The position numbers and the translations under genes are program-made. Source: Eledone cirrhosa (Eukaryota). From it: DNA of 64,000 nt. Below are positions 49,293 through 59,605 of this stretch, piece by piece (the stretch's first letter is position 1; each line of letters starts with the position of its first letter). The stretch is taken from the NCBI GenBank assembly GCA_964016885.1, contig OZ024751.1:48298001-48362000 (forward strand). The letters are read 5' to 3'. The notes under the pieces are model-generated. The model was not told the DNA's origin, did not search any database, and saw only the letters and a program-made list of their open reading frames with translations.

Positions 49293-49898
49293 TGTATGTA
49301 TGTATGTATGTATGTATGTATGTATGTATGTATGTATGTATGTATGTATCTATGTATGTATGTATGTATGTATTTATGTATGTATGTATGTATGTGTGCA
49401 TGCATGTATGTATGTATGTATGTATGTATGTATGTATGTATGTATGTATGTGTATGTATGTAGTAGCTGCTGTTTTAGAGATTAACGGCGCATCATCTAT
49501 TCAAGCGAAGGCATTCAGTGGTTTTTATGTCTGTCTCTGTCTGTATCTATGTATGCAGCAAAGTTATAGAACGTATAATCTTATATATATATATATATAT
49601 ATATATAAGTGGTGTATCAGTGTATCATGGGATGTATTAGTGTATAGATCCAGAAGTTTGTGTGCTCCACAGTATGAGCTTATCGAAGCATGAATTATAG
49701 TAACGTTCCAACTGTGTATATATATACATATTCAGTTGGAAAGTATATATATATATATATATTAGAAAGTGAGGTTTTTTTACAAAATGAAAAATAACCG
49801 AGGTGTCATACACGAGTGACAGTATAAAGAAAAAGAGATGAAATCGAAAATGCAACTGGAGTCTTATTTTTTTTTTAAATATATATATTTATTTGGTT

Positions 49899-49936
49899 CC
49901 TTTACCGGTTTCGCAGTTCTTCTGCTTTTCAAAAGG
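49899..49936 (-). ncRNA. Minimal type-I hammerhead ribozyme, U3-A8 variant
   Basis: Mirror image of 50009-50046. Confidence 0.72.
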
Positions 49937-50008
49937 TGAGTTGAGATGGAGGGTCTGTGGTTTTTCTCACAGATGTGAGAAAAACCACAGACCCTCCATC
50001 TCAACTCA

Positions 50009-50046
50009 CCTTTTGAAAAGCAGAAGAACTGCGAAACCGGTAAAGG
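50009..50046 (+). ncRNA. Minimal type-I hammerhead ribozyme, U3-A8 variant
   Basis: CCTT-TTGAAAA-GCAG aagaa CTGC-GAA-ACCGGT-A-AAGG: stem I CCUU/AAGG, stem II GCAG/CUGC, palindromic stem III ACCGGU, GUA cleavage triplet. Confidence 0.72.
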
Positions 50047-50734
50047 AACCAAATAAATATATATATTTAAAAAAAAAATAAGACTCCAGTTGCATTTTCG
50101 ATTTCATCTCTTTTTCTATATATATATATATATATATATATATATATATATATATATATATACATATATATATATATATATATATATAGCTCGCAATACT
50201 TGCTCGTTATACATATATAAATATGTATATATATGACTAAAGAAATTTTAGCCTGATAATGGGGTTTAGAATCCTCATAAAATGGAAAAAGATGAGGATT
50301 CGTCAATACTCATACTTTTTCATTTCTTAAAGGGTTCTAAACCTCCTATCAAGCCAACATTTCTTTAGTAAAAAATACGGCGAAATCTTCTATTTCTAAT
50401 TTCAAACTCGCTCGCTGTTTCAAAACATACATGATAAAGTATATTTAGAAATAAAAGGAAAGCACAAACGGGGATAATCCCTTCTTCAGTTGTCTGCTGG
50501 AGATCACGGACAATGCGTTGAAATGTCCGTGATCCCCAGCAGACAACTGAAGAAGGGAATGTGCCCTGTTTGTGCTTTCCTTTTATTTTTAAATATATAT
50601 ATATATACACAAAACGCCAGCACCAACAGTTTTGCAAGCGATGTCAACATGAATGGACCTGTTATTTTTATCCAAAGACATTTTTTCCAATTCCATCCTG
50701 CTCGTCCCCTTAACCCATCTTATTTCTCATTCTT

Positions 50735-50770
50735 TCTTCTGATGAAGGACTAGCGTTCGAAACGTTAAGA
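50735..50770 (+). ncRNA. Minimal hammerhead ribozyme (canonical core)
   Basis: TCTT-CTGATGA-A-GGAC tagc GTTC-GAA-ACGT-T-AAGA. The downstream tail TTGTGTTGTTATTTCTGTTTACCTTTT is also present at ~1488-1514. Confidence 0.72.
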
Positions 50771-55948: not shown

Positions 55949-57891
55949 TTAGGGAGAAGTGTTTAGACGGGGTCCGTATTTGTTAATGAAGTAACATTCC
56001 TTGCTGATGCGCTGGGTGTGGGTGGCATTATCTTTAAATTTGTAGAGGGGAATGATTCTGAAGTTGGGATGATTTTGGGCGGCACAGGTATCAATGTGTT
56101 CACTCAGTGGTATTTTCCTGTATTCCCGTATTTTAATTTGGGATCTATGGACAGACATGCGTTGGCGGAGGCTGTTTTTGGTCTGGCCTATGTATTGTTC
56201 TCGACAACCTGAACAAGTTAATACATATATTATATTTTCCGATGCACATGTGAAATTGTGTTTTACTATAAAACGTTGTCCATCTTTGAAATAGAATTCC
56301 GAACCCTCTATTAGGTTGATGCAAATGCCACAGTTGGGTCTATCGCATTTTTTTTACTGTGGGTTTCGTTGTTGTGGTTGGCAGTACTTTGGCATGTGTT
56401 AAGATGTTTTTCATTGACTTGGATTGTCTTTTGCTCTTTATGATATCGTGTGTTCGTAGAATTTGGTTCATTCTATGGTCCTTTTTCAATACAGGGATGT
56501 TCTGGAGGATGGTGTCAAAGGCCTCATTGTTGAGGGGGTTGTGTGTGGAGATGTATGGAAGAGCTTTTAGTTTTGGTTGATTTACTTTAGGGTGTCTAAG
56601 GTCCTGGGTACTGAGTTTTAGGGCACGTTGGATTCCATTGTCAATTAGTGATGCAGGGTAGTCCCTGCCTATGAGTGTGTCCTTTAGTTCTTGTAGCCGT
56701 AAGTAGCAGATGTTTTTATTGGAGACTATAGTACAGATTCTCTTGGCTAAGTTGTAGGGAATATTAATTTTAACGTGTCTAGGGTGGCAAGAGTTGAAGG
56801 GGAGATATTGCTTGGAGTCTGTGGGCTTGTAGTATATGTCTGTTTCTATTTTTTTGTTATGGATCTTAATGAGGATGTCGAGGAAGGGGAGTTGTTGATG
56901 GCTGTATTCCATCGTGAAGTTAATATTTGTGTTGAGCCCATTTATAAGGGTGTGAAATTCTTTAAGTTTTTCGATGTTTTCGTGCCAAAGGATGAAGCAG
57001 TCATCTAGATATCGCTTCCAGTTCCTTTCAACGTGTAAGTGGAGGGTGTTTCCAAATTTGTTTAGGACTTTAGTGTAGAGGGTGATTTCCAGGTATCCCA
57101 TGACTAGGTTGGCATAAGTAGGGGCTGTTTTCGTTCCCATAGCGGTCCCAGATTTCTGCCTGTAGGATTTGTTATTGAAAACGAAGTAATTGTTCTCCAA
57201 GATAAATTTGAGTCCCTCTATCACGAATTCTTTTTTGATGCGTTGTGGGAGTTCATTGTGGAAATTATCCAGCCAGAATTGGATAGCTTCTATTCCTAGG
57301 TTGTGGGGGATGTTGGAGTATAGGTTGACTACATCGAACGTCACTAGTAGGGTTTGTTCAGAAAGTGGCATATTAGGGAGGTGATTGAGCATATCTAGGT
57401 CGTCCCTTATATAGCTTTTGATGTGCTTGAGGAAGGGTTTGAGAAGGGTATCAATGAAGTTGCTAAGACGGTGCGTTTCGCAAGCGGGGCCTGCTATTAT
57501 AGGTCTTAATTTGAGATCATTGGGTGAGGGGACATTGATGACTATGTCTGTGGCTTCCTTGCATGCCTTACTGATTGATTCGCTTTTATGTACTTTAGGG
57601 ATACCGTAGAAAAGGCTGGATTTACTTGTGAAGTCTGTGATGGAGCTGAATTCCTTGTTAGTGAGTCCTTCTTTGTATTGGTTGATTAGAGTTTTTAGGT
57701 TTCTCATAATTTTCTGTTGATTGTAGTGTTCAGCCTTTTCGTAGTATGTTTCGTTTTCCAAAGTGGAGAGCGCTAAGTTGATATAGAATTCTGTCTCCAT
57801 TAGGACTACTGTACTCCCTTTATCAGCCTCTTTAATTGTAATGGTTCTGTCGGTTTTTAATCTATTTAATTCTTCCCATTCTTTCTTGTTG
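55949..57891 (-). pseudogene. Penelope RT + GIY-YIG endonuclease ORF, 5'-truncated, one homopolymer frameshift
   Basis: IKEADKG, FYGIPKVHK, LRPII, FDVVNLYSNI, SGTAMGT, RYLDDCF, LPFLD, YYKPT. After +1 in T8 (56348-56355): CDRPNCGIC...NIIYVLTCSGCREQYIGQTKNSLRQRMSVH...ECYFI..LN. Confidence 0.92.
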
Positions 57892-58213
57892 AGAATTCCC
57901 AAAACTAATCAGATCAGAGCAAACAGCACGGACACTCTATCTCAAAATTATTTTTGAAAAGCATTTAGAAATGCGCAACCGGTAAAAACTTAAAAACTTA
58001 AAACCACAACTGAATACTAACCCATACAATCACTAATACTCTTTTATTCCTAATTAAACCATTTTTTCAACTGTGAACAATTTATCAGCATTTTCTATTC
58101 CGTTTACCAATATATATATATATATATATATATATACATATATATATATATATATATATATATATATATATATATATATATATATATATATATATATATA
58201 TATATATATATAT

Positions 58214-58410
58214 ATAGGAACGAGTAGGACCCCGACGGTTCAGCTCAAGCCGTTTCGATGGCTAATTCTGGACTCCAGAATTAGCCGTCGATACGGCTTG
58301 AGCTCAGCCGTCGGGGTCCTACTCGTCCCTATTACCCACTCTACTACTCTAAGTATTGAGTACTTTGGTGCGTTATGGTCCATCTGGTTCCTTACCACAT
58401 TTCCTTCGTT
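58214..58410. repeat. GC-rich fold-back (59-bp arms, 58214-58332) plus unique tail, inside (TA)n
   Basis: TAGGAACGAGTAGGACCCCGACGG...TTCTGGA c TCCAGAA...CCGTCGGGGTCCTACTCGTCCCTA. Confidence 0.85.
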
Positions 58411-59240
58411 ATATATATATATATATATATATATATATATATATATATATATATATATATATATATATATATATATATATATATATATATATATACTGAT
58501 TTACACACACACATTCATATATACATACATACATAGATATATATATATCTCATACATACACACATACATACACACATACATACATACATACATACATACA
58601 TACATTATATATATATATATATATATATATATATATATATATATATACTCACATTTACACACACACATACATACATACATACATACATACATACATACAT
58701 ACATACATACATACATACATACATACATACATACATATATACATACATACATACACATATACATACATAAAAACCTCTTAATTGTATTTAATCTTTCATA
58801 ATGTATGAAAAATAAAACAAATATAACAAGCAAACAAATCAAACATATAATTACATCTTATTTACAGTGAAAAAAAAAAAATACAAGTCTGACAACTCCA
58901 ACTGGCAAGCTCATATTTTTATGTATTTCATCACGCATTCTCCACTCATCAACTCGTCATAGATAACCGTATAACTGACAACCAACAGTTTATTACGAAG
59001 ACAAAACCCACGAAAGCATTTTATGTCATTCCTTTAATGACGTTTTTAATATTATTTCGTCAAAATATATATTTACCCACTTAGTTATATATATATATAT
59101 ATATATGGAGATATAAAAGATACAGAAGCGAAAACCAACCCAAACCAAACAGTGAATGTGTTCTATTATTATTTCTGGAAATATTATAACAATATGACCC
59201 TCTCCAAATATAACAATATCTATACATATATATATATATA

Positions 59241-59605
59241 TATAAAGAAAAAGAGATGAAATCGAAAATGCAACTGGAGTCTTATTTAAAAAAAAAAAAT
59301 ATATATTTATTTGGTTCCTTTACCGGTTTCGCAGTTCTTCTGCTTTTCAAAAGGTGAGTTGAGATGGAGGGTCTGTGGTTTTTCTCACTGTGAGAAAAAC
59401 CACAGACCCTCCATCTCAACTCACCTTTTGAAAAGCAGAAGAACTGCGAAACCGGTAAAGGAACCAAATAAATATATATATTTAAAAAAAAAATAAGACT
59501 CCAGTTGCATTTTCGATTTCATCTCTTTTTCTTTATACTTTCACTCGTGTAGGACACCTCGGTTATTTTTCAATTTGTAAAAAAAAAACCCTCACTTTCT
59601 AATAT
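59241..59605 (+). mobile_element. Fold-back Penelope pseudo-LTR-derived element, copy 2 (HHRs at 59424-59461 + and 59317-59354 -)
   Basis: Arms 59241-59388 / 59390-59537 and tail to ~59605. The right arm is identical to that of copy 1. Confidence 0.85.

Follow-up and report, generated by a model that had tools for sequence, protein, structure and literature searches.

We analysed a 64,000-nt stretch of Eledone cirrhosa DNA (contig OZ024751.1, positions 48,298,001 to 48,362,000; hereafter the window), in which three repeat families, here called A, B and C, carry hammerhead motifs with a U-A pair at core positions 3 and 8 (U3-A8) in place of the canonical C3-G8 pair. Families A and B are sister families of Penelope-like elements (PLEs) with the motif in their pseudo-long terminal repeats (pLTRs), and family C is a non-coding, retrozyme-like repeat (Table 1). 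The both-strand descriptor scan detected the four family-B motifs, bounded by CCTT and AAGG, exactly where an earlier note on this DNA had placed them, and the cut predicted for the second of them agreed with the scan; the two family-A motifs that it had reported in a Penelope pLTR are present, with their spans adjusted to those in Table 1. Two independent insertions, each with two arms, account for the four family-B motifs. The pattern search for an exact family-B 40-mer gave 5,887 occurrences in the genome and 0 for the reversed control, far more than chance would produce.

Structure of the Penelope-like families

The whole family-A insertion of the window spans 54713-58116, with the motif in the 3' repeat and again in an inverted repeat. 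This copy had been described as autonomous, and its structure shows otherwise: it starts within the open reading frame (ORF) of the reverse transcriptase (RT), lacks ORF1, and its RT and endonuclease are out of frame with each other, unlike those at loci L063 and L151, where the two share one frame. Direct pLTR-ORF1-ORF2-pLTR units were detected for family A at L152 (motifs 4,805 nt apart) and for family B at L066 (motifs 4,915 nt apart). The units of both families measure 4.8-4.9 kb and hold ORF1, then RT, Zn-finger and GIY-YIG, with the motif ~170-190 nt upstream of the ORF1 start; identity between the families is 56-58% for RT and 52-53% for GIY-YIG. RT together with GIY-YIG was found in 4/9 stretches fetched around widely spaced or clustered family-B matches (L061, L062, L063, L066).

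The C-terminal GIY-YIG after the RT assigns both families to the endonuclease-bearing (EN+) PLEs, and a CX2-5CxxC linker and a CCHH motif, as defined in 10.1101/2021.04.23.441226, were seen by eye in their proteins. Both families share with the Neptune and Nematis EN+ PLEs (Craig et al. 2021; PMC3846280) the RT, linker and C-terminal GIY-YIG, the (TA)n target sites, pLTRs in direct and inverted orientation of which one end carries a tail, and palindromes at inverted junctions; such palindromes and tails, along with truncated inverted copies and insertion into (TA)n, have been described (Craig 2021, 10.1101/2021.04.23.441226; Arkhipova 2013, PMC3846280). The tails are ~40 nt long in A and ~60 nt in B, vs 30-40 in the Neptune/Nematis type. 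Unlike Neptune and Nematis, families A and B have, instead of a single ORF, a separate ORF1 of 436 aa in A (that length at 7/30 loci) and 400 aa in B (4/30), which overlaps the RT ORF in the -1 frame at U UUU UUA.

This heptamer is conserved at the overlap of ORF1 with the RT-endonuclease ORF in both families (L180-L199, L200-L227; it is not in the window copy). We take it to be a classic slippery site, and the sequence of the -1 overlap suggests that it is likely a programmed frameshift; a weak hairpin lies 3' of the heptamer in B and none in A, and our literature search listed no slippery-site frameshift for PLEs of this kind. In both A and B the tail opens with a related GTGT..ACAC segment just past the short end (L066, L152; window 49790-49830 and 54735-54755), a candidate RT-start or protein-binding element.

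Table 1. Positions of the hammerhead motifs and of the elements that carry them in the window
Position	Strand	Feature	Basis
49756..49971	-	Palindrome 1, family-B pLTR arm, long "tail" end, ends in (TA)n	98% to natural full-length L066, -69 to +147 from cut
49899..49936	-	Family-B minimal type-I hammerhead, U3-A8/A13/A17	descriptor scan
49970..49974	+	CAGAT common to A and B, with U3 ~43 nt downstream; 5' ends and palindrome centres concentrate here	copy-end comparison
49970..50122	+	Palindrome 1, family-B pLTR arm, short end, ends in (TA)n	98.7% to L066, -73 to +79 from cut
50009..50046	+	Family-B hammerhead; U3 at 50013, predicted cut 3' of 50042	descriptor scan, dimer fold
53478..53931	+	Family-C non-coding retrozyme-like repeat, ~316-324 bp unit; short inverted arm 53478-53566 and forward unit, between (TA)n tracts	83% to L150 tandem unit
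53606..53650	+	Family-C hammerhead, U3-A8/A13/C17, 12-nt palindromic stem III	descriptor scan
54713..57893	-	Family-A PLE, 5'-truncated main arm: RT, Zn-finger linker, GIY-YIG, 3' untranslated region (UTR), long-tail pLTR	95.6% to L152 over 3,166 nt; Pfam RVT_1, GIY-YIG
54881..54917	-	Family-A hammerhead-like motif, U3-A8/C13/A17, in 3' pLTR	descriptor scan
55949..56353	-	C-X4-C-xx-C linker and GIY-YIG endonuclease, out of RT frame here	PF01541 E 1.8e-7; 53% to family B
56340..57890	-	RT reading frame, beginning inside ORF	PF00078 E 2.3e-7; 58% to family B
57892..58116	+	Inverted family-A pLTR, short end	99% to L152, -93 to +130 from cut; 175-nt perfect inverted repeat
57951..57987	+	Family-A hammerhead-like motif; U3 57954, C13 57976, A17 57984	descriptor scan
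59241..59388	-	Palindrome 2, family-B arm, short end; hammerhead 59317-59354 (-)	L066 match, end type
59389..59608	+	Palindrome 2, family-B arm, long tail; hammerhead 59424-59461 (+)	L066 match, end type

The U3-A8 core in families A, B and C

The motif of families B and C matches YUGANRA and GAAA..UH, the two boxes of the core, and its positions 3 and 8 pair (U3-A8, GAAA, and A or C as H17). Family A departs from this consensus at A13 of the GAAA box, with C13 in 11,078 copies vs A13 in 42, and C13 is fixed in all its subfamilies. Stem II is closed by G10.1-C11.1 in all three families, and the unpaired base between 9 and 10.1, which is usual and not universal, is absent from all of them. Stem III is the palindrome ACCGGU in A and B, for which fold prediction gave intermolecular pairing with a probability (P) of 0.9-1.0 in short constructs. 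Stem I has 4 bp in B (3 bp and a mismatch in one major subfamily) and three U-A pairs with a predicted P near 0 in A; in both families U3 is able to pair with the cleavage-site base A17. Close to the core of A, B and C there is also a UCAA complementary to UUGA that might fold into an inhibitory hairpin, although its shortness makes it hard to distinguish from a chance match.

The proposed homology of the A and B motifs was confirmed, with 30/44 aligned bases shared upstream and 73-74% identity over 123 nt spanning the motif, but the claim that they differ in stem II alone was too narrow, as family A also has G12-C13-A14 for GAA and a stem I of only three U-A pairs. Of the covariation proposed for stems I and II, two compensatory changes can be read from the sequences, C-G to U-A in stem I and G-C to U-A in stem II, but one stem I pair is broken. 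Between natural full-length A and B copies the core is identical at 16/17 positions and the inner stem II at 6/6, vs 59-68% in the flanks (P 0.002-0.04 for the core). The family-A motif is hammerhead-derived despite its C13.

The descriptor with positions 3, 8 and 13 left free was run on 1,264,000 bases, comprising 120 content-blind 10-kb stretches and the window. It gave 43 matches, 10 of them in the window: 25 C3-G8, 17 U3-A8 and one G3-G8, with no C-A or U-G, and the two positions are paired in 42/43, compared with one of six matches in the reversed control. Independent 3-8 cases are few, because the 43 matches collapse into 15 clusters, 11 C-G, three U-A (one a singleton that looks like chance) and one G-G. 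Together with the core shared by A and B, this pairing upholds the earlier proposal of a compensatory U3-A8 pair in hammerhead-derived PLE pLTR motifs. Pattern counts over the whole genome were 29,780 for U3-A8 vs 27 for C3-G8, which is no covariation test because the pattern was tailored to the stem II of A and B. As had been anticipated, standard searches would be blind to the motif: CUGANGA/GAAA descriptors would overlook ~30,000 motifs in this genome.

Within family B, 4/561 core and 51/2,060 flank positions differ, the copies not being independent; the equivalent comparison within A is confounded by alignment gaps. No core variant at 10% or more was present in the contigs of runs X1, X4 and X6, where one major stem I variant was found, and a major family-B subfamily with a broken outer stem I pair (L098, L155, L188, L199) makes up about half of the depth in run X1. 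A search of sequencing runs with the family-B sequence listed no RNA run containing it. We rejected an amplified family-A subfamily with a broken stem III (just 101 scattered copies, background level vs 11,078), a family-A subfamily with A13 (the 42 copies only), and an alternative register giving family A a GAAA box (read from the sequence, no register leaves stem II). One family-B copy, L333, lacks the whole ribozyme between both stem I strands.

At least 2,503 copies of family C were counted, L150 and L302-L326 among its loci, and they frequently form inverted pairs or tandem runs of 316-324-bp units; at L150 six motifs lie 316 bp apart, one hammerhead per monomer. A PLE ORF was found in none of 27 family-C loci, and the family ends at two sites in a PLE-like manner. 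In the covariation set of 20 of 25 distinct sequences (five near-duplicates or truncated ones were excluded), 98.7% of the stem cells pair and 7/12 pairs in stems I-III change on both sides, the palindrome of stem III covarying too; 0/500 shuffles reach the score and slid controls gave 25-44%. The core and part of stem II were preset in the search pattern, and the shuffle takes no account of ancestry. By its sequence, family C is the real non-autonomous U3-A8 element of the window, having the non-coding tandem ~300-bp monomers with one hammerhead each that are typical of retrozymes. Its ~320-bp non-coding tandem repeats, type-I hammerhead and PLE-style ends are like those of the metazoan non-LTR (long terminal repeat) retrozymes (PMC7229834; 10.64898/2026.07.22.740005), whereas its U3-A8 core is unlike theirs (PMC7229834); retrozymes have been tied to pLTRs (Li 2026, bioRxiv 10.64898/2026.07.22.740005).

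The U3-A8 pair itself is already published, as the earlier note had stated in part. Cervera and De la Pena 2014 (PMC4209133) reported U3-A8 min-hammerheads of PLE pLTRs in Cercyon PLEs, with ~1,300 matches and low dimer activity, and hammerhead pairs on opposite strands 100-700 bp apart in PLE pLTRs, and Perreault et al. 2011 (PMC3088659) stated that natural U3-A8 in place of C3-G8 is active in vitro. The Schistosoma mansoni Cercyon/Saccoglossus hammerheads of PMC4209133 share with the present motifs the UUGANAA core, G10.1-C11.1, a short predicted stem I, the palindromic stem III, the pLTR location, thousands of solo copies and opposite-strand pairs. The present motifs differ by the lack of the unpaired 9/10.1 base (also missing from two rows of Fig. 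S3, PMC4209133), the 6-nt stem III and, in family A, C13. That figure holds three U3-A8 rows, with no cephalopod and no C13, whose cleavage-site bases are G, U and U vs A17 in A and B; in abundance, ~30,000 pattern matches here compare with the ~1,300 published. The relevant section of PMC3088659 does not name A13C as a variant, and neither a C13 core nor the present lineage was found in our literature search, which did not cover Lunse 2017, the main PLE hammerhead variant catalogue, or bioRxiv supplements. The fixed C13 of family A and the three-family series remain of interest, as do two side findings, the concentration of ends at CAGAT and the -1 overlap of the ORFs.

The three abundant U3-A8 lineages form a graded natural series, namely C (A13, C17, strong covariation, tandem arrays), B (A13, A17) and A (C13, A17, weak stem I). 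Their relative cleavage rates bear on two possibilities, that a PLE may pass 10,000 copies with no functional ribozyme, or that the core tolerates C13 as a new base. Families A and B offer a natural comparison for asking whether catalysis by PLE hammerheads matters, and the hammerhead role in endonuclease-bearing PLEs has been called unclear (Craig 2021).

Palindromes, copying and cleavage

The palindromic insertions at 49756-50122 and 59241-59608 each sit between (TA)n tracts, and their arms are 95-100% identical to the family-B unit L066, whereas their identity to family A is just 73-74% over 123 nt. Because the arms match B, not A, and continue into copies with RT and GIY-YIG, the palindromes are, on sequence comparison, extreme 5'-truncated head-to-head insertions of the coding sister family B, not derived from the family-A element of the window. 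The earlier suggestion that the motif links this element to a non-coding palindromic family was not borne out, since the palindromes match a separate coding family and family A forms palindromes of its own, with an 80-nt gap. Unlike retrozymes (PMC7229834), the family-B palindromes have no non-coding tandem ~300-bp monomers and are continuous with a coding family.

End types were compared in 47 listed head-to-head pairings, which include some cross-pairs of neighbours and one repeated window element: 32 are long/short, two more are so with a mutated tail, one is long/long, one is short/short and 11 have an unclassified end. Both insertion ends stop at TA microhomology and the insertions sit in (TA)n tracts. 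The 5' ends lie 36-47 nt upstream of U3 for 35/76 family-B and 19/65 family-A motifs, longer distances being lower bounds (ungapped extension); this is the position of the conserved CAGAT of Table 1, a candidate transcription start. The same 80-nt junction recurs in two family-A subfamilies, and rare variants are common to both arms in 3/7 distinct pairs. A pure fold-back from the long-tail arm was rejected, because the short-end arm extends further upstream in 7/17 short long/short family-B palindromes and fold-back alone would need later flipping.

We propose that the endonuclease would nick a (TA)n target and that reverse transcription would begin at two invariant positions inside the element, downstream of the hammerhead, in the way observed in vitro for the Anolis PLE. 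The RT would read through the uncut ribozyme and often run off near CAGAT, where pLTR transcription would start, after which the two products would be joined head to head via 2-bp microhomology or fold-back. Cleavage would thereby be optional for insertion, so that weak cores could spread, first U3-A8 with its U3-A17 trap and later C13. Frangieh et al. 2024 (PMC11167929) showed for the Anolis Poseidon element PAc that the tail is set by two internal RT start sites and that both strands are extended; uncleaved RNA is the main substrate, and insertion in vitro still takes place when the hammerhead is mutated. The core of PAc is a canonical C3-G8 one that overlaps the ORF start, whereas the present motif is non-canonical and lies in the 5' UTR.

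Every motif-bearing copy was copied through the motif, and ends within 5 nt of the upstream cut were found in 0/30 family-B and 2/30 family-A ORF1-bearing copies. Matches starting within ~3 nt of the family-B cut number 187 genome-wide, at most ~3% of the intact count and near background; among the 20 inspected there was no full-length copy starting at the cut, six keep the ribozyme upstream and one has it deleted. The copies were probably made from uncleaved RNA, because their ends show no pile-up at the cleavage site. Fold prediction for the family-B dimer (short construct) gave -21.1 kcal/mol for the active fold vs -22.5 for the best, the difference being the U3-A17 pair (P ~0.6), which, by analogy with the C3-G17 trap proposed in hammerheads (PMC3884650), would damp cleavage. 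For the family-A dimer the active fold (-8.7 kcal/mol) is 9 above the best (-17.9), with stem I unformed and stem III pairing between strands. We would somewhat expect detectable dimer cleavage for family B, and for family A it appears doubtful.

We conclude, with a probability of about 0.8, that the motifs are U3-A8 minimal type-I hammerheads in the pLTRs of two sister PLE families, that the palindromes are family-B stubs likely made from uncleaved RNA, and that B is likely a weak dimer cutter and A a very poor one or none. Several results weigh against this conclusion. A simple transcription-start model predicts a pile-up of 5' ends at CAGAT, and 0/60 ORF1-bearing copies end within 5 nt of it. 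Cleaved and ligated circular RNA leaves no genomic footprint, so that the absence of a footprint does not show the absence of cleavage. The rest of the family-A core is unchanged among subfamilies, which differ too little for a selection test. Little weight can be put on the fold model: even the canonical hammerhead at 50735 was not predicted to take the hammerhead shape, and in the family-B dimer stem III gave way to a downstream AU palindrome once 30-nt flanks were included. The predicted effect of A13C draws in part on general statements in PMC3088659.

Both cores could alternatively be working ribozymes, with C13 tolerated, a protein of the element helping, and cleavage plus ligation yielding circular RNA templates without a genomic trace, which we consider rather unlikely. 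The near-identity of the A and B cores and inner stem II relative to the flanks points in this direction, as do the broken stem III that stays at background (101 vs 11,078), the seamless upstream pLTR-ORF1 junctions and the Anolis PLE hammerhead, which cuts only with protein (PMC11167929). On the other hand, C13 occurs in 0/56 PLE hammerheads of Fig. S3, PMC4209133, whose descriptor demanded GAAA, stem I of family A has a predicted probability near 0, and in a full pairwise scan of a type III construct only the G3-C8 swap rescued the region (Roberts 2023, PMC9901934).

It is improbable that the family-A hammerhead is catalytically dead and kept as an RNA dimerisation or binding signal, ACCGGU pairing two templates for two priming events. 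Naiad PLEs without hammerheads form the same inverted structures and tails (10.1101/2021.04.23.441226), and the family-A subfamilies are too close to reveal selection after C13, although intermolecular stem III is predicted in A with P 0.76-0.99 while stem I is unformed, the palindrome is retained in all family-A subfamilies seen, and inverted pairs use both start sites. We give equally low credence to a fuller version, in which family A would be a thriving PLE (>11,000 young copies) that lost catalysis via U3-A8, the U3-A17 trap and C13, and kept the stem III palindrome as a retrovirus-like dimerisation signal behind the head-to-head insertions.

On the view of the earlier note, the palindromes would form a separate non-autonomous family that PLE enzymes amplify in trans as a unit, and their spacing lends this some support. 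The first 100 family-B 40-mer matches include 26 head-to-head pairs (and two tail to tail), of which 19 are less than 200 bp and 11 of these 105-111 bp apart; identical junctions recur, and both arms share rare variants in the 3/7 pairs mentioned above. Spacings nevertheless form an unbroken range between 74 bp and 4.8 kb that extends to full length, the family-B junctions vary (gaps 41-126 nt), one junction was found with either arm long (L067 vs L069) and in two family-A subfamilies, and the arms match family B rather than the family A of the window, which makes a distinct family quite improbable. A chance look-alike in an AT-rich repeat is refuted, for although the core is A/U-rich and the Rfam scan of the window gave generic hairpins and no hammerhead family among the 150 matches listed of 246, the motif sits in the pLTRs of two RT/GIY-YIG families, its free 3-8 positions pair in 42/43 vs 1/6 control matches, and family C covaries in 7/12 pairs around the same core.

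Other features of the window

Further canonical C3-G8 hammerhead motifs, in other repeat families, were detected at 50735-50770(+), 53305-53375(+), 60800-60865(-) and, in part, 52926-52970(-), and a G3-G8 motif of another repeat family lies near 488 (about 480-520, +). Short palindromic insertions at 50425-50590 and 58216-58330 adjoin (TA)n tracts and are, by eye, unrelated to families A-C. A non-LTR retrotransposon with RVT_1 and zf-RVT, split into three frames, occupies 45149-48674 (-), and a tandem array at 29946-32027 holds 21 copies of a 99-bp unit that are 99% alike.

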